DNA of 64,000 bases from Halarcobacter sp. GTDB taxonomy: Bacteria; Campylobacterota; Campylobacteria; Campylobacterales; Arcobacteraceae. The stretch is from NCBI GenBank assembly GCA_048571215.1, contig CP182352.1:1440001-1504000 (forward strand), read 5' to 3'. The position numbers were made by a program, and so were the translations under genes. Below, in pieces: positions 20,109-36,062 of the stretch (the stretch's first letter is position 1; every line of letters begins with the position of its first letter). The notes below the pieces were generated by a model, which saw only the letters and a program-made list of their open reading frames with translations, made no database searches and was not told where the DNA came from.

Positions 20109-21408
20109 TATAATAAATATTATAAGGATTGATATAGATGGAAAAGAAAAAACAATTTGATTTTAATGAAGCTGTACAAGATTTACTTGCAGGTAAAAAT
20201 ATCAATGGTAAAGATGGAGTACTTGCTCCATTAGTAAAACAATTAGTTGAAGCTGCTTTAGAAGCAGAATTAGATTCTCATATAACTCAAGATGTATTTG
20301 CAGGAAATAAAAATAGAAAGAATGGTAAAAGCTCTAAAACAATAAAATCAACAAGTGGTTCCTTTGAATTGAATACTCCAAGAGATAGAACAGGTTCTTT
20401 TGAACCACAACTTGTAAAGAAAAACCAAACAACAATGTCTAATGAAATAGAAGAAAAGATATTATCTATGTATGGCTTAGGATTAAGCTATAGAGATATT
20501 ATAAAACATATTGAAGAGATATATCAAATACAATTATCAAGTGCAACAATAAGCACTATTACAGATAAAATTATAGATAAGGTAAAAGCTTGGCAAAGTA
20601 GACCTTTAGAAGCTATTTATCCATTTGTATGGCTTGATGCGATACATTATAAAATAAAAGATGGTGGGAAGTATGTGAGTAAAGCAGTTTACACAGTTTT
20701 AGGGATGGGAATTGATGGTAAAAAAGATATATTAGGATTATATTTATCCCAAAGTGAAGGAGCAAACTTCTGGCTTAGTGTTCTTACTGATTTAAATAAT
20801 AGAGGATTAGAAGATATACTAATTGCATCAGTAGATGGTCTTAAAGGCTTTCCTGAAGCTATTAAAACAATATATCCAAATACCGAAGTACAACTTTGTG
20901 TTGTACATCAAATTCGTAATTCATTGAAGTATGTAGCTTCTAAAGACCAAAAAGAGTTTATGAGAGATTTAAAACTTGTTTATCAAGCAACAACAAAAGA
21001 ACTTGCAGAAGATGAGCTTTTAAAACTAGATGAAAAATGGGGGAAAAGATATCCCATAGTACTTCAATCTTGGCAAAATAAATGGGAGAATTTATCTTAT
21101 TATTTTAAATATCCAAAAGAGATAAGAAAGATTATGTACACTACAAATATTATTGAATCTGTACATAGGCAATTTAGAAAATTAACCAAAACAAAAGGAG
21201 CTTTCCCTAATGAGAATTCACTTTTAAAATTGTTGTATATGGGAATATTAAATGCAAAAGTAAAATGGACTCAGCCAGTGCATAATTGGAGTTTAACAAT
21301 CTCCCAACTTGCTATATTTTTCGAAGGGAGATTGGATAATTATTTAGAGTTGTAACAAGTATGGATTTGTTACTTTAGGTGACTTGACACAGATTTTTGA
21401 ACGGTCTC
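20079..21408 (+). mobile_element. IS256-family insertion sequence with 8-bp target duplication AAGTCTTA
   Basis: Imperfect IRs GGGAGTGTTAGAAAATCTGTGTCA and (reverse complement) GAGACCGTTCAAAAATCTGTGTCA; AAGTCTTA at 20071-20078 and 21409-21416. Confidence 0.92.
20138..21355 (+). CDS. IS256-family (Mutator-type DDE) transposase
   Basis: PRDRTGSFEP, WLDAIHYK, DGLKGF, QLCVVHQIRNS, YTTNIIES. Confidence 0.95.
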   Translation: MEKKKQFDFNEAVQDLLAGKNINGKDGVLAPLVKQLVEAALEAELDSHITQDVFAGNKNRKNGKSSKTIKSTSGSFELNTPRDRTGSFEPQLVKKNQTTMSNEIEEKILSMYGLGLSYRDIIKHIEEIYQIQLSSATISTITDKIIDKVKAWQSRPLEAIYPFVWLDAIHYKIKDGGKYVSKAVYTVLGMGIDGKKDILGLYLSQSEGANFWLSVLTDLNNRGLEDILIASVDGLKGFPEAIKTIYPNTEVQLCVVHQIRNSLKYVASKDQKEFMRDLKLVYQATTKELAEDELLKLDEKWGKRYPIVLQSWQNKWENLSYYFKYPKEIRKIMYTTNIIESVHRQFRKLTKTKGAFPNENSLLKLLYMGILNAKVKWTQPVHNWSLTISQLAIFFEGRLDNYLEL

Positions 21409-21439: not shown

Positions 21440-23269
21440 TTACAGCTCTTCAAGTTTTTTATCATACTCATGTATGATTTCATCAAGTTTTAATTGACTC
21501 TCTTCCAATAATTCAAATTTTTCTTCAACCTCTTTTTCATATCTTAAAATTATTTGAGATAGTTCTATTATCTTACTATTATCACCTATATTTGAAGCTT
21601 GTATAAGTTCAGCTTGCTCTTTTTCTATCAAATCTTCTAACTCTATAATTGCATTTTCTAGTTTCTCCACCTCTTTTTTAAAAGGAGTTGCCAATTTATT
21701 TTTCTCTTGAATTAAAGAAGCTCGTAGTTTTTTGTTCTCTTTTTTATTTACTTTTGGGGCAATTTTTACTTTCTCTTCATCCTCTTCTTCATCCCAACCA
21801 ATCTTTTCTAAAAACTCATCATATGTTCCATCAAAATAATCTGCACCATCTTTTGCGAACACAATCAACCTATCGCAAACTTCTCTTAAAAGTTTTTCAC
21901 TGTGAGTTACAATTATACAAGAGCCTGCAAAGTTTTTTATAGCTTTAGTTAAAGAATCAATAGATTGCATATCCAAGTGATTTGTAGGCTCATCTAGAAA
22001 CAGCAGATTTACATCTTTTGCTAAGATTTGTCCTAACATCACCCTACTTTTCTCTCCCCCTGATAATAAAGATATTTTTTTCTTAACATCATCTCCACTA
22101 AACATCATAGAACCACAAATGCCCCTAACTGTAGCTTCTGGTAATTTTGAGTTTGAAACATAAATTTCATCCATGATATTATTGTTTGGATTAAGATGGG
22201 ATATATTAGTTTGTCCAAAATGACCAAATGAAGTAGTTCCATGATAATCCACTGTTCCATTTATTTGTTTTAATTCACCTGCAATAACATTTAATAAAGT
22301 TGATTTACCCTTACCATTTTTTCCAATAATTCCTAAGGTTTCCCCTTTTTTTAAAGTAAATGAAATATCTTTAAAAAGAATATTGTCTTTTGTATATCCA
22401 AAAGATAAATCTTTTACATCAAGTAAAACTTTTGCTGGTGTGTCTTTATAATTAAAATCAAAATCTATAGTAGCCTCATCTACAAGGGAATCCATATTAT
22501 CCATTTTTTCCAATAACTTAACTTTTGACTGGGCTTGTGATGCTGTTGAAGCCCTTGCTTTATTTTTAGCTATAAATTCCTCCAACTCTTTTCTTTTTTT
22601 ATCTTGTGCCTCTTTTTGCTTTTCATAATGTTCATCATTTGCTGCTAACTGCTCATAAAACTTATAAGTACCACCTGATAAAATAAATAAAGATTTTCTA
22701 ACAATACCCATAGTATGTGTTGTAATACTATCCATAAAATCCCTATCATGGGTGATTAAGATAACCTCTCCATCAAAGTTCTTTAAAAATATTTTCAACC
22801 ATCTTAAAGATAAGATATCTAAGTAGTTTGTAGGCTCATCAAGAAGTAATAGGTTTGGTTCAGTAATCAATAGTTTAGCAAGATTTATACGAATTTGATA
22901 ACCCCCAGAAAAAGACAAAGGGTCTTTTTCTAAATCTTCATGGGAAAAACCTAAACCAAATAAAATCTTCTCAACCTTGTAAATACTAAACTTGTCATCA
23001 ACACTCAAAGCAAGAGCAGTTTCATCCCTAAGTGTTTTCTCACTAAATTCCAAGTGTTGTTTAAGTGCCCCTATTTTATACCCTTTAGGTATTAAAATCT
23101 CACCATCATCAACTACCTCTTCACCAAGTATTAGTTTAAAAAGTGTAGATTTTCCTGTACCATTTCTCCCTACAAGCCCTATTCTTTGTCCTTGTCCTAA
23201 AATAAGATTCAGATCTGTAAAAAGTGTTTTCTCACCATAATGTTTTGAAAGATTTTTTAGTTGTATCAT
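21440..23269 (-). CDS. ABC-F family ATP-binding protein
   Basis: Two ABC cassettes (GRNGTGKS, GKNGKGKS, DEPTN twice), no TM segment, coiled-coil tail. Confidence 0.92.
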   Translation of the reverse strand: MIQLKNLSKHYGEKTLFTDLNLILGQGQRIGLVGRNGTGKSTLFKLILGEEVVDDGEILIPKGYKIGALKQHLEFSEKTLRDETALALSVDDKFSIYKVEKILFGLGFSHEDLEKDPLSFSGGYQIRINLAKLLITEPNLLLLDEPTNYLDILSLRWLKIFLKNFDGEVILITHDRDFMDSITTHTMGIVRKSLFILSGGTYKFYEQLAANDEHYEKQKEAQDKKRKELEEFIAKNKARASTASQAQSKVKLLEKMDNMDSLVDEATIDFDFNYKDTPAKVLLDVKDLSFGYTKDNILFKDISFTLKKGETLGIIGKNGKGKSTLLNVIAGELKQINGTVDYHGTTSFGHFGQTNISHLNPNNNIMDEIYVSNSKLPEATVRGICGSMMFSGDDVKKKISLLSGGEKSRVMLGQILAKDVNLLFLDEPTNHLDMQSIDSLTKAIKNFAGSCIIVTHSEKLLREVCDRLIVFAKDGADYFDGTYDEFLEKIGWDEEEDEEKVKIAPKVNKKENKKLRASLIQEKNKLATPFKKEVEKLENAIIELEDLIEKEQAELIQASNIGDNSKIIELSQIILRYEKEVEEKFELLEESQLKLDEIIHEYDKKLEEL

Positions 23270-23425
23270 ATTGCTCTTTGTTTTAATAAATTTATATTTT
23301 TTTTGAATATGGATTATATTATAATATGGGTTATAGAATAGTTTAGTATTCCTTTTCAGAGCACTTTAATTTTATATTTGACAATTATGTTTAAATGATA
23401 TATATTCATATATAAAGGAGTCATT

Positions 23426-24178
23426 ATGGAAAACTATTTTGATAAAGAGTTTGAATTAAGATTTTTTGAAATGAATAGATTAGGTGAAGCTTCGGCTATT
23501 TCTATATTAACTCTACTTCAAGAAACTGCCGCTGAACATTGCCGATATGCTGGGCATGACCTTTTATCTTTAATGTCTGAAAACCTTGGGTGGGTACTAC
23601 TTGCTGGTGCAATGGAAATGGAACGCTACCCACTTTATAAAGAAAAGATAATTATAAGAACATGGATATCAAAATATCATGCCATTAGGGGATTTAGAGA
23701 AAATATAATTTATGATGAAAACTACAATATAATAGGTAGAGCTAGAGGTTTGTGGGTATTTTACGATATAAAAAAAAGAAGACCTAAAAAAATACACCCT
23801 GATTTTTTAAAAAAATGGTCATCTTGTAAGACAATATCTCTTGAACATGATATAAGTAATAAGATTGAACCTCTTAATTCTTTTGAATGCAAAAAAGAGT
23901 TTAAAGTCAATATGTATGATACAGATACCAATAAACATGTTAATAATCTTAGATATCTACAATGGCTTATGGAATCAATTCCAGATGAGATATTAGACAA
24001 TTACTACTTGTATTTTATTGATGGACGTTTTATTTCAGAAGCTAATTATGGTGATTCTATTTTATCTTTAACAAATAAAGATGTTGAGGAAAACTCTTTT
24101 ATTCATACTATTCAAATAAAAGAAAGTGGCAAAGTTTGTGCTACTGGTAAATCAGTTTGGAAAAAAATACGAAAATAG
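23426..24178 (+). CDS. Acyl-ACP thioesterase (FatA/B-like)
   Basis: LLQETAAEH and DTDTNKHVNNLRYLQW hot-dog motifs. Confidence 0.88.
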   Translation: MENYFDKEFELRFFEMNRLGEASAISILTLLQETAAEHCRYAGHDLLSLMSENLGWVLLAGAMEMERYPLYKEKIIIRTWISKYHAIRGFRENIIYDENYNIIGRARGLWVFYDIKKRRPKKIHPDFLKKWSSCKTISLEHDISNKIEPLNSFECKKEFKVNMYDTDTNKHVNNLRYLQWLMESIPDEILDNYYLYFIDGRFISEANYGDSILSLTNKDVEENSFIHTIQIKESGKVCATGKSVWKKIRK

Positions 24179-24233
24179 GTTTTTCTAGAAGTTGAACACT
24201 TCTATAATCTCGCTTGTACTCACTGCGTAAGAA

Positions 24234-24437
24234 CGCTTTCTTTACTTTTAGTGGTAAAAGTAAAACAAAAGCCACCAGACGCGTTGTTGAAGCTAAAGTT
24301 CCCTCCCACTTCACTTTTTAAAGCTAGCCTGCAAAACTCCTCGAAAAAGTGACATCTAGTCACTTTTCTCTCGTTAGACAGTTTCGGCTTTTTCCGCTTT
24401 AAAAAGCGAAGTACTCGGCTTCAACAAAGTCTGGACT
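24234..24437 (+). repeat. Structured repeat copy B1 (same family as A copies, opposite orientation)
   Basis: Ends match 32256-32497; nested stems CCAGAC..TTGTTGAAGC / GCTTCAACAAAGTCTGG; inner hairpin AAAAGTGAC-atcta-GTCACTTTT. Confidence 0.8.
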
Positions 24438-24473
24438 AAAATTCCCTAGCCTTGAACTTTCTCATACTATTTG

Positions 24474-24848
24474 AGTATTACACAAATCCAAACAAAATGG
24501 TACCAAAAAATGAAAAGGTCATTATCCCACCTTCCCGCATTTGAGAAGCCGAGTGTTTATTTTTGCTTTTCGGATGTAATCCTGCTTGCAGGCAAAAGTT
24601 TTTTAACTGTCTGAGTGTCAAAAACGTAACTAACTTACGTTTTAGCGAGTTTTGAAAAACAGAAAAGTGAAATAATAAGCGAGGGAACCTTCGGCTTCGA
24701 AACCCGCGGGATAATTTCTTTGCTACTTTCTTTTTCACAAAAGAAAGTCGGAATAAGTTAAAACGTACTGCAAAAGTTTATTTATACTCAAATATTTTGA
24801 TAATAGTATTACCCAAATATACATAATATATTTATCATTTTGTTAAAC
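24474..24848 (+). repeat. Structured repeat copy A1 with conserved flanks
   Basis: Near-identical blocks at 27276-27503 + 28802-28937, 31899-32220 and 32533-32690; structured core about 24532-24750. Confidence 0.85.
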
Positions 24849-25066
24849 AATAAAATGTTATTTAAAGTTAAGTTTTTCACCTTTAACATACATTATGTAT
24901 ATTAAAGTACTAAATATAAACATAAAATATATATAAAGATTATAACTTATAATAAAAATATATAGAAAAAAATATCATATTATGTAATGTTTTTTCTATA
25001 AAGATGTATAAGATGAGCTTTCTTTGTAAATATATAATAAAGTAGTATATTTAAGTACTTTATTTA

Positions 25067-25095
25067 TATAATGTATATTCAATAAATAGTTAGAC
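25067..25095 (+). promoter_or_regulatory. attI/Pc-like array-start site 1 (TATAAT-N16-GTTAGAC)
   Basis: Same spacing and similar sequence as 29135-29163 and 32868-32896; GTTAGAC is the exact reverse complement of GTCTAAC at 26562. Confidence 0.6.
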
Positions 25096-25109
25096 ACAAA
25101 GGAGTAGTA

Positions 25110-25757
25110 TTGCCATTAAAGCCAGATATAATAGAACTGATTGACAATTATTGTACTAAAGATTTGCCAGGAGATTTACAGTGGCATATTGATAGATTTA
25201 ATTTCATTAAAAATACAGATTTACAAAATAAAATAGGCAGAGCATATTATAGTTCTCGTTATATGAGTAAATTAATGGAAGCACTAAGAGGAACTGGGGA
25301 TGAACTTCATCCATTTGTTAAATTCCAAATATTACAATATGCATCTATTTATGAAGCGGTTATAACTTACTTACTTTGGGATACATTTAAAGAACATGAT
25401 GAAGTAATACAATTACAAACACATAAAACATATAAACCAGTTCATGCTTTAGGAAGTAAAACTAGCATAAAATATGATGGAGAGGATGTTTTCACTTGTG
25501 TATATCGTGATGTAAAAACACATAAAAACTCAATTTCTTTTCCAAGCAAAGTAGATTGTGCAGTTAGAATTGGTTTTTTAAATGAAACATATGCTGAGGA
25601 TATTAAACATATTTATATGCTTAGAAATTTAGCACACATTGAAACAGAAGCTGATAAAAAAATTGAAGTTGAAATTGAACATTCAAAACTAGGATATTGG
25701 AGATTAAAACCTTTTCTTGATGATATTGTAGCTTTTTTTGAAGAAAACAATAGCTAA
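25110..25757 (+). CDS. Cassette-borne hypothetical protein (possible HEPN-like, LRNLAH)
   Basis: 215-aa ORF, TTG start with AAGGAG RBS just after the GTT core. Confidence 0.7.
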   Translation: MPLKPDIIELIDNYCTKDLPGDLQWHIDRFNFIKNTDLQNKIGRAYYSSRYMSKLMEALRGTGDELHPFVKFQILQYASIYEAVITYLLWDTFKEHDEVIQLQTHKTYKPVHALGSKTSIKYDGEDVFTCVYRDVKTHKNSISFPSKVDCAVRIGFLNETYAEDIKHIYMLRNLAHIETEADKKIEVEIEHSKLGYWRLKPFLDDIVAFFEENNS

Positions 25758-25776
25758 TGAACATTAAAGAGATAAT

Positions 25777-26577
25777 ATGACAATTGAAGATATTCAGAAG
25801 CTAATTAACATTTATAATAAAGGTATAAAAACCTATAAAGAAATGTGCGACCATATTTTAAAACAAGATACAAAAATTAATAATGAATTATTTTTACTAT
25901 TATTAGCAGTATCAGACTCAATGGAATCATTAGCAATATTAGGCAACTTCAATAAAATGAGAGATTGTTATGTTGTCTCAAGAACAATTTATGAAACTAC
26001 TTTAAATATTCTGCTTATTTTATCCACAGATTTTGAATCAATGGATGAAATGACTAAATATACATATGATGAAATTGAGCAAGAAGATTCTCGTTCAATT
26101 ACTACCGACAGTGAAGCAGTATTTTTTGCTTTTGATGGAATAAAGCATACTGTTGGATTTGCTAAAAATAATCCTTTTAAAGTAAGAAATCCACGTTCTT
26201 GGACAAAACATAAAATACAGAATAGAATAAATCTTATTGATAAAAAATATGGAAAAGTTGTATCTCGTTCTTTACAAGTAGCTCACTTGACAATTTATAG
26301 AACAAGCTCAAATATTGCTCATGGAACTCTTTATGGAATGCTTCAAGCTATGGGTTTAATTCATGAAAAAGAGATCAAAGAGTTTACAGATATTAGTATG
26401 ATAGAACATAATTTTCAAGTAATTACTACGTTATTACTAACTATATCTCAAAGTGTTTATGGATTGACATATGCATTAGATAAAGAACTAGGGTTAGAAG
26501 AATTTGAAAAAAGTTTTTATACTAGTTTAGAAGAATTTATAAATGAAGGCAAACAATTATTGTCTAACAAAACCTAG
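25777..26577 (+). CDS. Cassette-borne hypothetical protein (DUF5677/HEPN-like)
   Basis: SRTIYE and YRTSSNIAHG motifs resemble DUF5677-type proteins; stop lies inside the attC-like site. Confidence 0.65.
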   Translation: MTIEDIQKLINIYNKGIKTYKEMCDHILKQDTKINNELFLLLLAVSDSMESLAILGNFNKMRDCYVVSRTIYETTLNILLILSTDFESMDEMTKYTYDEIEQEDSRSITTDSEAVFFAFDGIKHTVGFAKNNPFKVRNPRSWTKHKIQNRINLIDKKYGKVVSRSLQVAHLTIYRTSSNIAHGTLYGMLQAMGLIHEKEIKEFTDISMIEHNFQVITTLLLTISQSVYGLTYALDKELGLEEFEKSFYTSLEEFINEGKQLLSNKT

Positions 26578-26632
26578 GAGAGAAATAAGTTACCCTAGCG
26601 GGCAAACTTATTTCTCAAGTCAAACGTTATAA
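26562..26632 (+). other. attC-like recombination site 1
   Basis: GTCTAAC...GAGAAATAAGTT-acccTAGCgggca-AACTTATTTCTC...GTTATAA; 71-bp imperfect palindrome between co-oriented genes. Confidence 0.8.
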
Positions 26633-26643
26633 ATAAGGAATAA

Positions 26644-27204
26644 TTGATGAATAAAAAATATTCAATTGTTATAGTGATTTGTTTTTTAATTTTTTGGTTT
26701 GTAAAACTTTTAGATTCTACGGGAACAATAGATACTATAAAATTAGCTATGAATGATAAATTTAATTATAAAATAGAAACATTACTTACACAAGCGGATG
26801 ATGAGGATATGGTAAAAATATTAAATAGTTTTATGAAAAAAGTTCAAAAAGATTATGCCAATAAAACTACAAGTGAAACGGTATTATTAAGTGCAAATCA
26901 AAAAAACAAACATGTAGTGTATAAATTTCAAATGAATTATGATGACCTATTACAATCTGTACCAAATAAAAGAAAGTTATCAAATAAAATTAAAAATTTA
27001 GTATATAAAGATATATGTTCCCAAGGAATATTATCCTTTATTGTTGAAAATAAGGCAGTAAGTTTTGAGTATATTTATTATGATTCTTTATCAAAAGAGC
27101 AAAATAGATATTTGATTCAGAGTGATGATTGTAAAATATGGGAAGATAATAATTTAGTATTTTCATTAACTAAAAAAGCGAAAAATTTTATAAATAGTCT
27201 TTAG
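26644..27204 (+). CDS. Cassette-borne hypothetical membrane-anchored/exported protein
   Basis: N-terminal hydrophobic segment; bounded by GTTATAAATA (26626) and its reverse complement TATTTATAAC (27211). Confidence 0.7.
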   Translation: MMNKKYSIVIVICFLIFWFVKLLDSTGTIDTIKLAMNDKFNYKIETLLTQADDEDMVKILNSFMKKVQKDYANKTTSETVLLSANQKNKHVVYKFQMNYDDLLQSVPNKRKLSNKIKNLVYKDICSQGILSFIVENKAVSFEYIYYDSLSKEQNRYLIQSDDCKIWEDNNLVFSLTKKAKNFINSL

Positions 27205-27544
27205 ATATAATATTTATAACGAATCAGTGAAATAACACCCCCAGAGAATGAATTTCCACTTTTATAATAATTATTGAGTATCACACCAATTCAAATAAAA
27301 TGGTATCAAAAAATGCAAAGGTCAATTTCCTACCTTTCCGCATTTTAGAAGCCGAGTGTTTATTTGTCTCTTTTGAAAACAAGTGACTAAACTGTTTGAA
27401 GCGTAAAGAAACGTTCTGGGAGAACGTTTTAGCAAGTTTTTAGGCACTCAAAAGGGATGAATAATAAGCGAGGGAACCTTCGGCTTCGAAACCTGTGGGA
27501 TAATTCGTATAATAAAATATTGGAAATATGATAGTATATTTTCA

Positions 27545-27748
27545 TAGAGTTCAATAGAAGATGATATATTGTGTGGGTGGTTGAAGCAATTAAAAATAAT
27601 TTTAATTAGCTTGTAAAGAAGTTCAATAGTTATACTTCAAATTTGAGTGGCAACAAGAACAGTTTTATAACTAGTTCGTATTTACGAGTCTAAAGTTTGT
27701 ATGACGAAATATCAGGTAGGAATTTTATTCCTACCCTAACGAACTCTT
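27545..27748 (+). ncRNA. Predicted IS110 bridge RNA
   Basis: Closing stem AGAGTTC/GAACTCT; two internal-loop hairpins carrying segments that match the target (TGTGGGTGG, AAAGAAGTT) and donor (GTGGCAA, TACGAGT) junctions. Confidence 0.75.
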
Positions 27749-27772
27749 TATATTAATACAAAGGTTCTAGAT

Positions 27773-28756
27773 ATGTATTCTATCGGATTAGATATAAGTA
27801 AGTCAACAATTAATATTTATATCCCTATCAATGATTTAGATATTCAAATATCAAATAATTTGAAATCACTTAAAGGTTTTTATTCTAAGTTAAAAAAACT
27901 TTATAAAAAAGATATAGATAAACTTGTATTTGTTTTTGAACCTACAGCTAATTATTCCTTTTTAATTAAAAAGTTTTGTTCTGAAAAAAGTATACACTGT
28001 TTTATTGTTAATCCAAAGAAAAGTGCTAACTTTGCTAAAGCAATTGGTCAAAGAAATAAAACTGACCTTTTAGATGCTAGAATGTTATCTCAGATGATAG
28101 TTACTGCAAGAAAAAATCAGATTAAAATACCCATTATTAATCCTTATGCCGAGGAATTAAAAGAGCTTATTACATATTATAAATTTATATCAAAAATTAA
28201 AACTCAAAATAAAAATCATTTGGAAGCTTTAGTTTCAAAAGATGCTTCATCTATTATAATTAAATCATTAAGAAAAGATATAAAATCATTTGAAAAAAAA
28301 GAAAAAGATATTCTTATTGAGATAAAAAAAGTTATTGCAAAAGACAAAAATTTACATAATGCATTTTTAAATATCCAAACTATAAAAGGCATAGGAGAAT
28401 TATCTTCAATTATATTATTACACCATTTTATACAATATCCTGATACAAATCAAAAGCAAATTGTTTCATTAGCTGGATTAGATCCAGTTAGTAGAGATTC
28501 TGGTTCATCAATAAAAGGAAAAACAAAAATATCAAAATCTGGTTCAAAATTATGTAGGGGTACATTATTTATGGCAGTAATGACAGCGATACAATACAAT
28601 GAAGAATTAAAAATATTTTATAATAGATTAAAAGAGAATGGCAAACATACTACTGTAGCACAAATTGCTGTAATGCGAAAAATGATTGTAATTGCTCACT
28701 CATTATATAAAAATAATAATATATATGACCCTAATAAATTTAAAAGTATATCATAA
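27773..28756 (+). CDS. IS110-family DEDD recombinase/transposase
   Basis: IGLDISK, FEPT, KTDLLDA, IKGIG, AGLDP..DSGSS (catalytic Ser region), AVMRK. Confidence 0.95.
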   Translation: MYSIGLDISKSTINIYIPINDLDIQISNNLKSLKGFYSKLKKLYKKDIDKLVFVFEPTANYSFLIKKFCSEKSIHCFIVNPKKSANFAKAIGQRNKTDLLDARMLSQMIVTARKNQIKIPIINPYAEELKELITYYKFISKIKTQNKNHLEALVSKDASSIIIKSLRKDIKSFEKKEKDILIEIKKVIAKDKNLHNAFLNIQTIKGIGELSSIILLHHFIQYPDTNQKQIVSLAGLDPVSRDSGSSIKGKTKISKSGSKLCRGTLFMAVMTAIQYNEELKIFYNRLKENGKHTTVAQIAVMRKMIVIAHSLYKNNNIYDPNKFKSIS

Positions 28757-29134
28757 ATATTAGATTTAAATATTTTATATTTTATCATTTTTTAAGGTGG
28801 CAACTTCTTTGCTACTTTCTTTTTAGAAAAGAAAGTCGAGAAAACCAAGAGGTACAGCAAAAGTTTATTTACACTCAAATATTTTGAAAATAGTTTTACC
28901 CAAACACAACATAATATATTTATCATTTTGTTAAACTATCAAGATTTTCACCAAATAGTCATACAAAATGATAAGATATTAAGGATATACCTTGATAATC
29001 TAACATAAAAAATGTTCTACTTTTTCTTATATTATTTTGTATTTTATTAAATTTAGACTATTTAAGGCTTATTTGAGCTAATATCTTTACATTTTTAATG
29101 TTAAGATATTAGATGTTTTTATATATTATTTATA

Positions 29135-29163
29135 TATAATGTATTATTAATAAGAAGTTGTAT
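29135..29163 (+). promoter_or_regulatory. attI/Pc-like array-start site 2 (TATAAT-N16-GTTGTAT)
   Basis: GTTGTATGAA (29157) is the exact reverse complement of TTCATACAAC (30370) at the cassette end. Confidence 0.6.
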
Positions 29164-29192
29164 GAACATATAAAATTAACTGAAGAGTATAG

Positions 29193-30362
29193 ATGAACAA
29201 TCATATAGAAATTTTTATAAATAATAAGTCTAATCAAATTCCGAGTAATGATATTGACTATATAAATAGTTTTTTACCATTTTATGCAGATGTTAAAAAT
29301 GACAATATAGCTTATTTATTCGCTTATTATCATTATAAATTTAACAGTTTATTTAGTTTTATGAATTCTAAATTAAATTCTGATAACCATCATTATAATG
29401 CTGACCCAAGTCGAGAACTAATAGCAATAATCGATGACTTAGAAAATGTATCAAGGGAACTGAAAAATACAGAATATAATTTTAACATTGATACTAATTA
29501 TCTAGAAATCATTAAATTATGTAAGACATTTTTATTAGGTAGTGGGGGAAGTCCTATTCCAGATGACTTCAAAAAAATTAATATCATTGAAGCTAAACCA
29601 ATTTTTCACATAAATACAACTATTACAGTTGAAAATGTAAAACTTGGTTTAAAATTAATAGGTGAAGGTTCATATGCACAAGTACTAAAATATAAAGACC
29701 AATTTTACAATAAAACATTTGCTTTAAAAAGAGCAAGACATAATCTTACTGATAAAGAATTAAAACGATTTAGAAGAGAATACGAAAGTATGAAGAGTTT
29801 AAATTCTCCTTATATTTTAGAAGTATACAAGTTTGATGAAAAAGAAATATCGTACATAATGGAATATGCTGATTTCACATTAGCTGATTACATAAAACAC
29901 AATAATACTAAATTAACTTATAATCAAAGAAAAAATATTATAAATCAAACTTTCAAGGCTTTTGAATACTTAGAAAGTAAAGATATACTACATCGAGATA
30001 TTAGTATAAATAATATACTTTTAAAACAATATGATGACTTATTTGTTGTAAAAATTTCTGATTTTGGACTTGTAAAACTAAAAAATAGTGACTTGACAAG
30101 TCAAAACACAGAATATAAAGGCTCACTAAATGATCCAAAGCTAGATATAGTTGGTGGATTTAAGAACTATGAAATACATCATGAAACATATGCATTAACT
30201 AGATTAATATACTTCATTTTAACTGGTAAAATTCGTATAGATAACTATAAAAAAAATGAACAACTAGAAACATTCATAAAAAATGGGATTTCTGATAATA
30301 TAGACCTTAGATATCATTCTATTAAAAAGATGCGAAAAGCTTTTAATGACCTTGTGTTTTAA
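29193..30362 (+). CDS. Cassette-borne Hanks-type Ser/Thr protein kinase
   Basis: IGEGSYAQV, ALKR, RFRRE, HRDISINNILL, KISDFGL; ~140-aa N-terminal extension; no TM segment. Confidence 0.9.
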   Translation: MNNHIEIFINNKSNQIPSNDIDYINSFLPFYADVKNDNIAYLFAYYHYKFNSLFSFMNSKLNSDNHHYNADPSRELIAIIDDLENVSRELKNTEYNFNIDTNYLEIIKLCKTFLLGSGGSPIPDDFKKINIIEAKPIFHINTTITVENVKLGLKLIGEGSYAQVLKYKDQFYNKTFALKRARHNLTDKELKRFRREYESMKSLNSPYILEVYKFDEKEISYIMEYADFTLADYIKHNNTKLTYNQRKNIINQTFKAFEYLESKDILHRDISINNILLKQYDDLFVVKISDFGLVKLKNSDLTSQNTEYKGSLNDPKLDIVGGFKNYEIHHETYALTRLIYFILTGKIRIDNYKKNEQLETFIKNGISDNIDLRYHSIKKMRKAFNDLVF

Positions 30363-30372
30363 GGCGTTATTC

Positions 30373-30442
30373 ATACAACAAAAACGAGGAGACCAATAAT
30401 TTACCCTTGCGGGAAAATTATTGCTCACGACAAACGTTAACT
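30373..30442 (+). other. attC-like recombination site 2
   Basis: ATACAAC...GAGACCAATAATTT-acccTTGCggga-AAATTATTGCTC...GTTAACT; 70 bp, same architecture as 26562-26632. Confidence 0.8.
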
Positions 30443-30461
30443 CAACAGTAAGGAAAATAAA

Positions 30462-31448
30462 ATGGAATCTAAGCATATAATTTATCTTGACACTTCAGGA
30501 TTAAATTATTTAGCTGATAAAGTCAAAAATTTTGATGATTTTTCTAAAATTAAAAATCATTTAAATTTTGAATTCTATTTATCTCCAATAACACTATGGG
30601 AAATCTTACTTAATGGGAATGATGAAAGAAAGGACTACTTAATTTATTGGTCTCAATTTAACTGTGCTAATAATCTAATAAAATCACCAACAGAAATAAT
30701 TTTAGATTTTATTAAATTGGACTGTCCATTAAAGGACAGAAAAGAATTCTATACTGATCCATATACAAAAATGGACTTAGGTATTACTTGGCAGAATATC
30801 CATCGTAAAATTGATAAAACTATTCCAATAGATTTAAATGAACTAAAAGAAAAAACTAAACCAATCAGAGATTTTTCAAAAAAGTTAAAAAAGATAATAA
30901 CTGATATGTGTAACGAAGAATATTCAAACTATAACAACGACCCATTTCATAAAGCTATGTTAAAAGTATGTAAAAATCTTGACTACTCTGACTCTCAAAT
31001 TAGTAAATATGAAAAACTTATAAAAATAGCATTAGTTTTCTTATTTTTCATTATCTGTATTGGAATCGAACTTCAAAATAATTTACTTAGAGCATATTGG
31101 AAAGAACTAAAGATAGAGGACCCATTTGATAAATTAGATTATTTGATAGATAATTATCCAATGTTATTAAATAGAGGACCTTTAATCGAAATGGCTAAGA
31201 TGTCTGATGAACAATTGAAAATGAGTAATTCTAAAAGTAGAGGTCTCCTTCATGATTGTTTTCATGCAATTTATTGTTACTATACAGATAATGTAATTAC
31301 AGGTGACGAACATTTCAAATCATTGAGAGAAAATGAAAAAGATACAATTTTTAGTCGTATTTTAATGACTGAAGAGATAGAACTGATATGGGAAGAAACA
31401 CTAAATGAGCTAACAAATCAGTCAGACTGTGAATTTAGTCCCAAATAA
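30462..31448 (+). CDS. Cassette-borne PIN-like domain protein
   Basis: IYLDTSGL, PITLWEI, HDCFH..., ITGDEHF acidic motifs typical of PIN folds; last codons come from IS sequence. Confidence 0.6.
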   Translation: MESKHIIYLDTSGLNYLADKVKNFDDFSKIKNHLNFEFYLSPITLWEILLNGNDERKDYLIYWSQFNCANNLIKSPTEIILDFIKLDCPLKDRKEFYTDPYTKMDLGITWQNIHRKIDKTIPIDLNELKEKTKPIRDFSKKLKKIITDMCNEEYSNYNNDPFHKAMLKVCKNLDYSDSQISKYEKLIKIALVFLFFIICIGIELQNNLLRAYWKELKIEDPFDKLDYLIDNYPMLLNRGPLIEMAKMSDEQLKMSNSKSRGLLHDCFHAIYCYYTDNVITGDEHFKSLRENEKDTIFSRILMTEEIELIWEETLNELTNQSDCEFSPK

Positions 31449-31794
31449 ACTAAATTTACAGTAAAAATCCAAATTAATTTCCAGAATATCTGATATTTTT
31501 TCTTAAATTTTTTAGATATAAAAATTTTTGTAAAAAATAAACCAAATAAAGTCCAAACACTAAGATATATTCCTCTATATCTTTTGTAATTTGGGTTAAA
31601 TCTTTATTTTTTATGGCTAAACACAGTTTTTTAAACAGAGTTATCCCTATAAGATTTAAAAGTCTTCTAAAATTATATGTAAACATAATAAGAGCATTTT
31701 CACCAAGTACCTTTTCTTTAGAACGAACTAAAAAATGATCCCAACTTAAAGTTCTTTTAATTGTATCATAGAGTGAAACGGAATCTACTTGCAA
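31423..31794 (-). pseudogene. IS1182-family remnant (one end plus transposase C-terminal fragment)
   Basis: TIKRTLSWDHFLVRSKEKVLGENALIMFTYNFRRLLN resembles IS1182 C-termini; terminal CAGACTGTGAA interrupts the attC-like site beginning GAGCTAACAAATCAGT. Confidence 0.7.
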
Positions 31795-31898
31795 AATGTA
31801 TGTTCTACTATTAAAGATCTTTTTTTAACTATATCTTTAGCTTTTTTGCTATTTATTATTATACGAGAGAATTAATCTCCACTTTTAAAATAGTTATT

Positions 31899-32220
31899 GA
31901 GTATTACACCAACAAAAACAAAATGGTACCAAAAAATGCAAAGGTCAATTTCCCCTCTTCCCGCATTTGAGAAGCCGAGTGTTTATTTGTCTCTTTTGAA
32001 AACAAGTGACTAAACTGTCTGAAGCGTAAAGAAACGTGACTAACTCACGTTTTAGCAAGTTTTTAGGCACTCAAAAGGGATAAGTAATAAGCGAGGGTAG
32101 TTTCACCTTCGAAACCTGAGGGATGATTTTTTTGCTACTTTTTTTTTCACAAAAAAAAGTCGAGAAAGTTAAGACGTACAGTAGAAATTTAACTACACTC
32201 AAATATTTTGATAATAGTTT
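31899..32220 (+). repeat. Structured repeat copy A3
   Basis: Aligns along its length to A1 and A2; inner hairpin AAACGTGA-ctaac-TCACGTTT. Confidence 0.85.
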
Positions 32221-32255
32221 TAATTGTATACACCCCCTTGTAGAGCAAAGCTCTC

Positions 32256-32497
32256 CGCTTTCTCACTTTTTAGTTGTAAAAAGTAAGACAAAAAGCAACC
32301 AGACGCTTGTTGAAGCTAAAGTTCCCTCCAGCTTTCTAATTATTTTGTCTGTACCAGAATTTAGTCACTTCGTTCCAGCATCTGACCTGCGGAACGCCTT
32401 CCTAAAAGGTACATTCAGTACCTTTTATCCACTTGAACGGTCCTCGGTCTTCTCCGAAAATAATTAGAAAACTTCCGGCTTCAACAAAGTCTGGACT
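32256..32497 (+). repeat. Structured repeat copy B2
   Basis: Shares CCAGACGC-TTGTTGAAGCTAAAGTTCCCTCC and CGGCTTCAACAAAGTCTGGACTAAA with B1; interior different but self-complementary. Confidence 0.8.
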
Positions 32498-32532
32498 AAA
32501 TACCCTAGCCTCAAACTTTTAGAATGCTTTTT

Positions 32533-32730
32533 AAGTATTACACCAATTCGAATAAAATGGTATAAAAAATGTAAAGGTCCTTATCCTACCTTCCCGCATT
32601 TGAGAAGCCAAGTGTTTATTTATTGTTTCGGAGAAGTTTTATAACTGTTTGAACATTAAAAACACAACTAACATATGTTTTTTCACAGAGAATGCAAATA
32701 TAAGTCTTACTTTTTTCAATAAAAAAGTGA
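32533..32730 (+). repeat. Structured repeat copy A4, internally deleted/decayed
   Basis: CCTTCCCGCATTTGAGAAGCCAAGTGTTTATT matches A1; 3' half degenerate. Confidence 0.7.
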
Positions 32731-32867
32731 ATATTCCAAACTTATTTCTCATAACATTATAATTTACTTAAAAGATATATCTTTCTATAATATTTTTTAT
32801 ACCAATATCTTATTTAAAAGCTTTATTGATTGTGCTATACAATCAGGCTATTTAAGTAATAAATTAA

Positions 32868-32896
32868 TATAATCTATGTTTAATAAATAGTTAGTT
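32868..32896 (+). promoter_or_regulatory. attI/Pc-like array-start site 3 (TATAAT-N16-GTTAGTT)
   Basis: TATAATctatgtttAATAAATAGTTAG matches site 1 TATAATgtatattcAATAAATAGTTAG. Confidence 0.6.
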
Positions 32897-32918
32897 CAAA
32901 GAAAGGAACAGCAATACT

Positions 32919-33536
32919 ATGAATGATGTATATACACAACTAATTACAGTTTTTATGGGCTTTTTTGCCATTATGAACCCTATTGCTAATACAGCAGCAT
33001 TTTCAGGTTTAGTTGGTGATAAAAGTAAATTAGAACAAAGAAAAATTGCCACTAAGGCACTTATAATTACTTTTTTTATAATTCTAGCTTTCTCTATTCT
33101 TGGGAAAGCTATTTTTCACTTATTTGGGATTACTATAGATGCACTTAGGATAACTGGTGGAATTCTAGTATTTATTGTTGGGTATCATATGCTTAATGGG
33201 CATGGCTCTAAACTACATTCTGCAGAGGATGAGTACGAATCTGATTTAGCAGTATCACCTTTAGCTGTTCCACTTCTTGCTGGTCCTGGGACTATTGCAA
33301 CAGCAATGAATTACTCTGCATCTGGTGGGATGGTTGGAATACTAACTACCGTATCTGTATTTGCAGTTTTATGCTTTATAACATTTTTTTGTTTTATTTA
33401 TAGTTCAAATATTTTGTCAGTTATAGGTAAAAGTGGACTTAGTATAGTTACTCGACTGATGGGATTAATTCTTGCTGTTATCGGTACACAAATGATTATT
33501 GTTGGGATAATGACTCTCATCAATAAAATAAGTTAA
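32919..33536 (+). CDS. MarC family integral membrane protein (cassette-borne)
   Basis: IMNPIAN, ITGGIL, PLAVPLLAGPGTIA, TRLMGLIL. Confidence 0.9.
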   Translation: MNDVYTQLITVFMGFFAIMNPIANTAAFSGLVGDKSKLEQRKIATKALIITFFIILAFSILGKAIFHLFGITIDALRITGGILVFIVGYHMLNGHGSKLHSAEDEYESDLAVSPLAVPLLAGPGTIATAMNYSASGGMVGILTTVSVFAVLCFITFFCFIYSSNILSVIGKSGLSIVTRLMGLILAVIGTQMIIVGIMTLINKIS

Positions 33537-33581
33537 CAAGGTGCTGCACGAAAACCAATTATCGTGATCACGACGTTATGC
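33531..33581 (+). other. Short attC-like site 3
   Basis: AGTTAAC...GTG-ctg-CACGA-loop-TCGTG-at-CAC...GTTATGC overlapping the MarC stop codon. Confidence 0.6.
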
Positions 33582-33594
33582 TACAAGGAAAAAA

Positions 33595-34215
33595 TTGAAA
33601 TATCTGTTAGTTTTTATAATCATAATTTTTCTAGTATTATTTTTAAGTAGTGCAGTATTACTTGATACACCTTGGTTTTCTGATAATTTATTAAAATTTA
33701 GAAGTGAAAATAATTTTCCTATTTTTATTGTATTACAAAATATAAAATTCTTTACTTTTTTATTTTTAACAACTATTGTTATATCATATATCCATTATTC
33801 TAGAAAGGTATATGGAAATAGTATTAGAAAAAATGTGATGTTTTATATGGGTATATTTTTTGGAATCAGTATTGTTTTAAATTTGTTGCAAACTTATTAT
33901 TCAATAGTTTCGTCAGAAGAAATATTGAAAGAAATAAGATATTCATCAAATTCATATTTAAAAGGTAAATTAACAATTTCAGACGCAAGGGAAATATATG
34001 CCAAGAATAATATTTTAATTGACTATTATGATTATAATAATACAATTCAAAAATTTAAACCAACTAAACAAGATATAGAATATCAAGAAACTGTACAGTG
34101 GCTTCTATTTAAAAAGAATATAATACCACTAAAAGTAGTATTCTCATTTTTTATATTTATTACTATATTTAGTTTTGGGAATTATATTGCTAATAAAAAG
34201 AATGACAAATCTTAG
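33595..34215 (+). CDS. Cassette-borne hypothetical membrane protein
   Basis: About 4 hydrophobic segments; TTG start with AAGGA RBS right after GTTATGC. Confidence 0.65.
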   Translation: MKYLLVFIIIIFLVLFLSSAVLLDTPWFSDNLLKFRSENNFPIFIVLQNIKFFTFLFLTTIVISYIHYSRKVYGNSIRKNVMFYMGIFFGISIVLNLLQTYYSIVSSEEILKEIRYSSNSYLKGKLTISDAREIYAKNNILIDYYDYNNTIQKFKPTKQDIEYQETVQWLLFKKNIIPLKVVFSFFIFITIFSFGNYIANKKNDKS

Positions 34216-34283
34216 AAGTGAACGTTACCCACCTTCAAAAAAAGAAGATGGGCTTCATTTATTTCAAAAACCGTTTCAAAAAA

Positions 34284-36062
34284 CTATTTTTTCTTAATAG
34301 CCTTCGCATTAGGCAAGTCAGTAATACTTCCGTGGAATATCTCTGCACACATACCTACAGATTCATGTAGTGTTGGGTGTGCGTGAATTGTAAGTCCTAT
34401 ATCTTCTGCATCACAATCCATCTCTAGAGCTAGTGAGATTTCTCCTAGAAGTTCACCTGCATTGTCTCCTACTATAGCTCCACCTATTAGTTGGTGTGTA
34501 TCTTTATCAAAAATAAGTTTTGTCATACCAGAGCCTGCAACATCTGCTGCTAATGCACGTCCAGATGCACTCCATGGGAAAGATGAAACTTCGTAGTTGA
34601 TACCAGCTTCTTTAGCTTCTATTTCACTCATACCAGCAGTTGCAATTTCTGGGAAGGTATATGCGATACCTGGGATTTGTTTTGGTTCAAAGAATACTTT
34701 ATGTCCTGCTATAACCTCTGCTGCTACATGACCTTCATGTACAGCTTTGTGTGCTAACATAGGTCCACCTATGATATCACCTATTGCATAGATATTAGAA
34801 ACCTTTGTTTTCATTTGATTATCAACTTTGATAAAACCTTTATCATCAACTTCTACACCTGTATTTTCTAAACCTATTTTTAGTCCATTTGGTGATCTAC
34901 CCATAGCTACTAATACAGCATCATATGTTTTTGGTTCAGGGGCATTATCACCTTTGAACTCTACATAGATACCATCTTCTTTTGGGATGATTGCTTGTGT
35001 TTGAGTTTTAAACATAAAGTTAAATCTTTTTTCATTTGCTTTTGTATAAACTTTTACAATATCCTTATCAGTTCCTGTCATAACTTGAGGCCCTCTTATT
35101 ACAACATCAACTTCTGAACCTAACTTTTGGTAAACAGTACCCATCTCAAGTCCAATGATACCACCACCCATGATAAGCATTTTTTTAGGAACTTCTTTTA
35201 CCTCTAAGGCATTTGTAGAGTCCCAGATTCTTGGATCATCATGTGGGATAAATGACATTTTAGAGCTTTGAGATCCTGCTGCAATAATACAATTATCAAA
35301 TTTAACAACTGTTTTACCATCATCTTTTGTATGTTCAACTACAACTGAATTTTCATCAATAAAGCTTGCACTACCTTGTATAACAGTTACTTTTCTCATC
35401 TTAGCCATAGCTGTTAAACCATCAGTAAGTTTTTTTACAACTGCACTTTTATAAGCTGCTACTCCTGGTAAGTCAATCTCAGGTTTTGTAAATTTAATTC
35501 CAGCATGTTCTATATGTTCAGCTTCTTCAATCACTTTTGCAACATGAAGTAAGGCTTTTGATGGGATACATCCAACATTTAGACAAACACCACCTAAAGT
35601 ATCATGTCTTTCAACTAAAACTGTATCTAAACCCAAATCAGCACATCTAAAAGCAGCTGAATATCCACCAGGTCCAGCACCAATAACCAATACTTGACCT
35701 TTTACCTCTTTTGCTCCACTTACATCTGTTGGTGTAGCACTTTGTTTTTGCTCTTGTTTTGGTGTTGAATCTTTTGGTTTCTCTTCTGTTTTTTCTTCAG
35801 CAGGAGCAACTGAAGCTTCATCTTCAACTTCAACCTTAGCTATCAAATCACCAGAGTTTACCTTCTCCCCTACTTTTACAAGTATCTCTTTAATCACACC
35901 ACTGTGAGTTGAAGGTACATCCATAGAGGCTTTTTCAGTCTCTAAGGTAATAAGCCCTTCCTCTTCCTCTACAGTGTCTCCAACGCTAACCATTACATCA
36001 ATTAAATCAACATCTTTATCTGCACCTAAATCAGGAATAAATATATCTACAACTTTACCCAT
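34284..36062 (-). CDS. lpdA: Dihydrolipoamide dehydrogenase with N-terminal lipoyl domain
   Basis: ETEKAS lipoyl motif, GAGPGGY, GGVCLNVGCIPSK, HAHPTLHE. Confidence 0.95.
   Translation of the reverse strand: MGKVVDIFIPDLGADKDVDLIDVMVSVGDTVEEEEGLITLETEKASMDVPSTHSGVIKEILVKVGEKVNSGDLIAKVEVEDEASVAPAEEKTEEKPKDSTPKQEQKQSATPTDVSGAKEVKGQVLVIGAGPGGYSAAFRCADLGLDTVLVERHDTLGGVCLNVGCIPSKALLHVAKVIEEAEHIEHAGIKFTKPEIDLPGVAAYKSAVVKKLTDGLTAMAKMRKVTVIQGSASFIDENSVVVEHTKDDGKTVVKFDNCIIAAGSQSSKMSFIPHDDPRIWDSTNALEVKEVPKKMLIMGGGIIGLEMGTVYQKLGSEVDVVIRGPQVMTGTDKDIVKVYTKANEKRFNFMFKTQTQAIIPKEDGIYVEFKGDNAPEPKTYDAVLVAMGRSPNGLKIGLENTGVEVDDKGFIKVDNQMKTKVSNIYAIGDIIGGPMLAHKAVHEGHVAAEVIAGHKVFFEPKQIPGIAYTFPEIATAGMSEIEAKEAGINYEVSSFPWSASGRALAADVAGSGMTKLIFDKDTHQLIGGAIVGDNAGELLGEISLALEMDCDAEDIGLTIHAHPTLHESVGMCAEIFHGSITDLPNAKAIKKK

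Follow-up and report, generated by a model that had tools for sequence, protein, structure and literature searches.

How do integron cassettes come to stand in short arrays far from any integrase that could have placed them there? The question is raised by a 64,000-nt stretch of the chromosome of Halarcobacter sp. (Arcobacteraceae; assembly GCA_048571215.1, contig CP182352.1, here C1), namely C1:1440001-1504000 of a complete, single-contig genome of 3.6 Mb and 28.5% GC. This stretch is called the window below, and coordinates without the C1 prefix are window positions. The window contains three short tandem integron arrays, each opened by an integrase-less head, i.e. a homologue of the intergenic region between intI and attI. 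No integrase lies within the window, and its heads (C1:1465089-1472890) are 569 kb from the only integron integrase gene of the genome. The sequence comparisons described here make it probable that such integrase-less heads, of which this chromosome has about twenty, were loaded in trans by one distant IntI.

Different cassettes behind near-identical heads

An earlier note on part of this DNA (25089..31414) had reported that the ends of four cassettes are exact reverse complements. All eight motifs that it named are present, and the complementarity, GTT/AAC included, runs for 8 bp between 25089 and 26561-26568, for 10 bp between 26626 and 27211, for 10 bp between 29157 and 30370, and for 8 of 9 bp between 30436 and 31406; it is exact in three of the four pairs, and the mismatch in the fourth had already been stated. 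Since GTT and AAC are obligatory, only positions 4-10 are informative. R'' boxes of other cassettes match the four leads, taken in order, as well as the cassette's own box does in 0, 2, 1 and 6 of 54 cases at positions 4-7 and in 3, 1, 0 and 0 of 54 at positions 4-10, and in a control the R'' box matched the lead of the next cassette perfectly at positions 4-7 in 3 of 54. The third head (crossover at 32890) and cassettes 5 and 6 lie beyond the region that had been flagged; the ends of cassette 5 pair no better than chance (37 of 54 R'' boxes are equally good). The complementarity is the usual footprint of integron cassettes, above chance and by itself textbook. The point of interest is the genome-wide set of integrase-less heads, which the earlier note did not see.

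The proposal of that note that the array starts behave like attI is supported. They are homologous to the intI-adjacent attI over the whole intI-attI region of about 290 bp (293 bp at 87% and 282 bp at 82%), and the intI-adjacent site reads nearly identically to them; the crossover falls at the same G|TT, and no attC hairpin is present. Unlike a classical attI, they are not adjacent to intI. An attI profile finds 22 sites in the genome at 18 bits or more (0-2 in three shuffles), and 12 of 13 seeds ranked within the top 16 when left out. The refined count is 20 sites above 24 bits plus one recognized by tail homology, i.e. 21 heads in 10 clusters, one of which lies beside intI; all 7 multi-head clusters are co-oriented, and every one of the 21 heads has its crossover at the base used in the intI-adjacent attI. 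Heads occur on both leading and lagging strands, as judged from an origin placed only roughly by GC skew. Eight other candidates (C1:431215, 432733, 542728, 899722, 1697713, 2482285, 2673937 and 3010496) were rejected because of low scores or failure in the leave-one-out test.

Four or five types of head can be told apart, and for each of them some relative has an intI-adjacent head that is close to it; the window heads are of types B, D and C in turn. Most are fused to about 600 bp of a non-coding repeat that we call X, and intI has been removed at two recurrent X-head junctions. The first, near codon 12 of intI, is present in six copies whose stub, of about 12 codons, can still be read and in further, more worn ones, among them that at 32723. 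The second lies just ahead of the ribosome-binding site of intI and has ten copies, those at 24822 and 28910 among them. In the wider family the attI motif is present in 81 of 154 genomes (2 matches in a reversed control), with cassettes checked at the individually retrieved loci only. By our own count of the table, 61 genomes have two or more copies of the motif and none of the 61 has more than one intI match; the five genomes with several intI matches fall outside this set.

Behind these heads the cargo differs. Heads 81-98% alike are followed, after G|TT, by DNA only 48-56% alike, and the first open reading frames (ORFs) differ in 22 of 22 heads here and in 49 of 49 in relatives. For 19 satellites (heads away from intI) with a recognizable first attC, 69 of the 76 bases compared between lead and R'' (positions 4-7) match, against a mean of 38.5 and a maximum of 57 in 100,000 permutations, and 15 of the 19 pairs are perfect; the R'' positions for these pairs were chosen by eye and one satellite without attC was excluded. 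With an automatic rule in relatives, satisfied by 9 of 52 integrase-less heads, 8 of 9 pairs are perfect (33 against a mean of 18.9 and a maximum of 31). Behind carA (identity confirmed by profile in two of four genomes), four genomes share the junction and have heads 88-95% alike followed by four different cassettes. At the locus of the window arrays, between an ABC-F gene and lpdA, relative G002 has four other head-cassette sets, whereas G016 has a worn head and G003 has none. Finally, satellites and the intI-linked arrays of relatives have cassettes in common at 94-97%.

Could chance, or faulty assembly of AT-rich and repeat-rich DNA, have produced this picture? The base composition of the genome invites the suspicion, as do public-run contigs, which break at repeats and whose joints are explained by other repeat copies. 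The shuffled, reversed-pattern and permutation controls, contigs (possibly from the source sample) that bridge head-cassette and cassette-X junctions, and the same architecture in other genomes largely refute this explanation, to which we give hardly any credence. Public runs in which this DNA has a small share are no evidence of habitat or expression.

One integrase at a distance

The sole integron integrase (C1:895242-896201) scores 398 bits against TIGR02249 (cut-off 265), the one match over cut-off in the genome. It keeps R136, K162, H267, R270, H293 and Y302, which their motifs indicate to be the catalytic residues. A 23-bp palindrome is common to C1:896343 (intI), 3465374 (recA), 841847 (radA), 1065165 (radC) and 1171480 (S24 repressor). 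A profile built from the recA, radA, radC and S24 repressor copies finds 10 sites at 20 bits or more (0 in one shuffle), and the copy upstream of intI has the top score although it was outside the training set. The set is a candidate SOS-like regulon with a CI-like repressor, for which our literature search found no description, and it suggests that IntI is repressed until DNA damage occurs. The palindrome has been lost from all three window heads. In the home array itself there is a worn head (C1:899520-899722), and gene-less cassettes with a long attC (C1:896493-896690 and 898384; loci L023, L021 and L011) are repeated there; such a cassette stands first behind a satellite head in G022.

Near-identical heads with one intI-deletion junction in common are followed by first cassettes that differ and have matching ends, and the same is seen at one orthologous locus in four genomes. 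Loading in trans after the loss of intI therefore appears the most likely course of events. The units are cassettes whose attC sites are typical of the family, and the heads have homologues beside intI in this and related species; IntI supplied in trans would insert such cassettes by attC x attI recombination after a head has lost its intI. Use of a lone attI in trans is established in engineered form (10.64898/2026.03.17.712381). A TATAAT box lies 22 nt upstream of every crossover in the window and would give each first cassette its own promoter, so that many cassettes could be expressed at once. The same boxes also suit a different explanation, in which heads are kept as promoter modules and cassettes entered adjacent secondary attG sites, which are reported to need only GWT (10.1101/2022.09.11.507474). 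The use of the intI-adjacent attI base as crossover in all 21 heads, together with homology over the entire intI-attI region, makes that explanation highly improbable.

How the heads themselves multiply is a weaker part of the scheme. X-head modules may spread by X-X recombination, by IntI-excised circles ending in attI, or by both. X also occurs alone, often after stop codons and including loci where a relative has X plus a head, and for this reason it might provide the homology by which heads move. An attI-ended circle would consist of gene, R'', X and head, which is how cassettes 2 and 4 of the window (below) now stand. This route would account for co-oriented tandem heads but not for the cluster starts, which have no GTT lead.

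Several observations weigh against loading in trans, in addition to the choice of pairs by eye. IntI differs at 5 columns that are invariant in 11 relatives, 8 of which have 0-2 such changes, and its substitutions include G46R, R144H and T298P, the last near the catalytic Tyr. In genus g18 the attI motif is present in 14 of 38 genomes and intI in 0 of 38. A promoter scan is at chance level (6 versus 5.7). Among the public-run contig joints shown, none represents excision, with 16 further joints outside those shown. IntI1 is reported to have removed completely a gene that lay between two full attI1 sites (PMC12901181); with an active enzyme, tandem heads would thus be expected to be unstable, and they imply a quiet IntI. 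Moreover, B-type heads are found on a D-type junction, which indicates that heads are also swapped by ordinary recombination.

Such chimeras, the substituted integrase and the genomes that have heads without intI are also what one would see if the heads were frozen relics that arrived as whole integrons or by homologous recombination from a strain with an intact integron and were never loaded after losing intI, the genome being a graveyard of attC-site clusters that lack an integron integrase (CALINs). Relatives do show intI decay at every stage (stubs of 120, 71, 50, 38, 32, 13 and 12 codons), and for several head types the matching intI-adjacent head is a different one in each case. Nevertheless, one junction is common to ten heads and the other to six or seven, yet their cassettes differ; all 8 close D-type heads that were inspected have X and no intI, and the intI-linked D-like heads are only 67-84% alike; and cassettes have turned over at orthologous integrase-less loci. 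These points make frozen relics unlikely, and loading in trans by the distant IntI is the explanation that we prefer.

The window arrays, repeat X and insertion sequences

The attC sites were called by constrained folding, a pattern search and a covariance model built from 35 sites of other genomes. The training pattern of the model was informed by this genome's own sites and its structure is out of register in the L box, so it is mainly a test of sequence homology; it scores the two intact attC sites of the window, those of cassettes 1 and 3, at 80.8 and 69.1 bits, with no other match of E < 0.5 in the 64 kb. Their bottom-strand hairpins fold with z of -4.5 (26562-26632) and -6.1 (30373-30442). 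When these two cassettes are circularized in silico, as the earlier note had suggested, the R box closes in the free minimum-energy fold, the energy going from -13.0 to -16.1 (cassette 1) and from -13.0 to -17.0 kcal/mol (cassette 3). Both sites belong to a homogeneous family of 69-71-nt attC sites found across the bacterial family, in whose 35 members 90.8% of cells in the R box and in the L box with its bulged C are paired, compared with 37-51% when slid. In class 1 attC sites the extrahelical base is G; here it is C. The R'' (RYYYAAC) and R' (GTTRRRY) boxes flank the hairpin in cassettes 1 and 3 and, weakly, in cassette 5, and cassettes 2 and 4 have R'' only.

The typical attC sites, the matching ends and the recurrence of cassettes support the earlier reading of integrase-mediated insertion. 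Each unit was presumably once circular; cassettes 2 and 4, in which attC is cut 9 nt after R'' (by repeat X and by the end of an IS1182-family element, respectively), are now unable to form an attC circle. Cassettes 2 and 5 recur elsewhere, but cassettes 1, 3 and 4 do not as whole units among 184 genomes. Cassette 2 is present at 97% in another genus with the same G|TT start, behind an attI-type site and with its attC intact, and cassette 5 stands behind an attC in relative G002 and behind a head here. One observation that the note had expected to speak against cassettes does occur in part, in that distant homologues of the kinase gene of cassette 3 (4 of 4 inspected) and of the DUF5677-like gene of cassette 1 (4 of 4), at 68-74% identity, lack cassette ends. 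This is expected, because genes get recruited into cassettes.

All features of the three arrays are on the forward strand unless noted. The first array opens with one doublet of ~300-nt hairpin units of X (24233..24806; fold z -7.2), followed from the junction at 24822 by a type B head (24822..25091; TATAAT at 25067, crossover G|TT at 25089). Cassette 1 (25090..26626), with its attC on the reverse strand at 26562..26632, indeed carries two genes, as had been claimed: an ORF of 215 aa without a family at 25110-25757 and a DUF5677-like one, below cut-off, at 25777-26577. The covariance model calls no attC between them. A 65% homologue of the first gene has an attC of its own behind it, and what looks like a worn attC stub separates the two genes, so cassette 1 may be a fusion of two cassettes; a 99%-identical contig in another study's data spans both genes. 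Cassette 2 (26627..27229; 186 aa, no family; R'' at 27211-27220) ends at the left end of an X unit (27230..28893) that is split by an IS110 insertion sequence (IS; 27506..28802, transposase 27773-28756).

The second array has a type D head (28910..29159; TATAAT at 29135, crossover at 29157) and, in first position behind it, cassette 3 (29158..30436; attC at 30370..30442 on the reverse strand). Its Ser/Thr kinase ORF (29193-30362) has Stk2 as best PADLOC match (residues 45-387, E 6e-36) and is a candidate anti-phage defence gene. Cassette 4 (30437..31423; 328 aa, weak PIN match; R'' at 31406-31414) now runs with its ORF into an IS1182-family remnant (31424..31860, reverse strand). After one and a half doublets of X (31865..32681), the third array begins at a worn intI-stub junction with a shortened type C head (32723..32892). 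Behind it are cassette 5 (32891..33575), a MarC-family gene with a short attC (33531-33581) of weak fold (z -1.3), and probable cassette 6 (33576..34220; 206 aa), whose worn attC, starting at 34200, is recognized from its likeness to the long attC type at C1:899289. A search of 23000-34500 against Rfam gave four chance-level matches and none for attC or X. Two genes nearby may be mentioned. A Mutator-family (IS256-type) transposase (20138-21355) adjoins the array locus, and an acyl-ACP thioesterase gene (23426-24178; also loci L024, L026 and L028) is preceded by a promoter-like leader of its own; its surroundings vary among relatives, and in one case it is truncated before a head. No GTT lead was seen at this gene or at the cluster starts, and the idea that either is a cassette led by GTT was dropped.

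X consists of strongly folding hairpin units of about 300 nt in alternating orientation, with 53 half-units at 150 bits or more, and its two halves match each other on opposite strands. It lies within 350 bp upstream of 16 of the 19 satellites, compared with 0.8% of random positions within 700 bp. No Y1 transposase (a REP-associated tyrosine transposase, RAYT) appears to be its partner, since X is absent from all 8 Y1 loci of 5 genomes. Two ideas about the X left end were abandoned: it is not the cassettes' own R'', as the true R'' lies 9-21 nt upstream, and an inverted attI that loads cassettes leftwards is unsupported, as the outward ORFs have no attC. About 40 bp of this left end stand alone at C1:3396750, 548530, 388226, 385015 and 906254, one of these copies next to an RHS-like region and one accompanied by short tandem repeats, and a palindrome of about 25 bp is inserted in X hairpin loops at several positions (8 places in the genome, among them 24578).

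Both kinds of IS in the arrays have fixed targets. Two IS110 variants, 75% alike, each use one fixed site in X; the first has four identical copies (that of the window and C1:1705062, 2521360 and 2826475), and the second lies at C1:383489, 424829 and 969536. The IS1182-family element inserts in attC sites. In all 6 copies in this genome (31424-31860 and C1:632415, 900502, 960354, 1937602 and 2825881) its end is found 9 nt beyond the AAC of an attC R'', as it is in 11 of the 15 inspected loci of relatives (L171-L184), with no end called in the other 4. It is predicted to be an attC-targeting IS1182, of which a literature search gave no obvious description.

Relation to known integron forms

By definition the window arrays are CALINs, with two scored attC sites 3.8 kb apart and no intI nearby; a complete integron is found only at C1:895-905 kb. 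In the paper that describes CALINs, loss of intI is among the listed origins and 95% have no intI pseudogene; they are defined there without attI, which is said to be unsearchable, and discussed as cassette donors (PMC4889954). Unlike them, the arrays here keep a full head with intI reduced to 0-12 codons, and they appear to be recipients. The home integron resembles a sedentary chromosomal integron in that intI lies beside guaA with a divergent attI and a homogeneous, lineage-specific attC family; in place of one attI with a long array, however, there are one short home array and twenty satellite heads. IntI also puts cassettes away from the integron at attG sites, as in SALINs (single attC sites lacking integron integrases; 10.1101/2022.09.11.507474), but attG has only a GWT consensus whereas these heads are attI homologues over about 290 bp. 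Cassettes 2 and 4, which end in R'', stub and head, show some likeness to delta-attI-type cassettes of class 1 and 2 integrons, where attI-region DNA of up to 238 bp replaces attC and IntI1 excises and re-inserts the unit; those are described within one array of mobile resistance integrons (PMC12901181). The heads here are instead complete, chromosomal, about twenty-fold and of several lineages, with X (and IS DNA) between stub and head. X itself is like repetitive extragenic palindromes (REPs), bacterial interspersed mosaic elements and REP doublets forming hairpins in being multi-copy, intergenic, often placed after stop codons, built of alternating hairpins and targeted by IS110, and it differs from them in its ~300-nt units and in lacking a Y1 partner at 8 loci and an Rfam family.

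In the passages concerned, published accounts regard attI as a single site next to intI, and CALINs as donors (PMC4889954; the Xanthomonas preprint 10.1101/2025.06.18.660453; PMC9668308; PMC12614218), and our literature search, mostly outside subscription journals and without supplements, found no description of multi-copy full attI heads. We put forward, tentatively, a distributed integron, in which the head may be a mobile, integrase-free module fused to X that spreads in Arcobacteraceae and one damage-regulated IntI may serve about twenty docking sites close to promoters. Integrase-less arrays, most of which are reported to have no intI pseudogene (PMC4889954), raise the question of their origin and activity. 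Here attI is conserved and searchable, stages of intI loss are visible and near-identical heads carry different cargo, so the question of whether CALINs are live recipients becomes directly testable. If the idea of a distributed integron is true, many prokaryotic CALINs would be live recipients whose attI was never looked for. It would also change the view of cassette expression, with many first positions instead of one, here including that of a candidate Stk2-like kinase.

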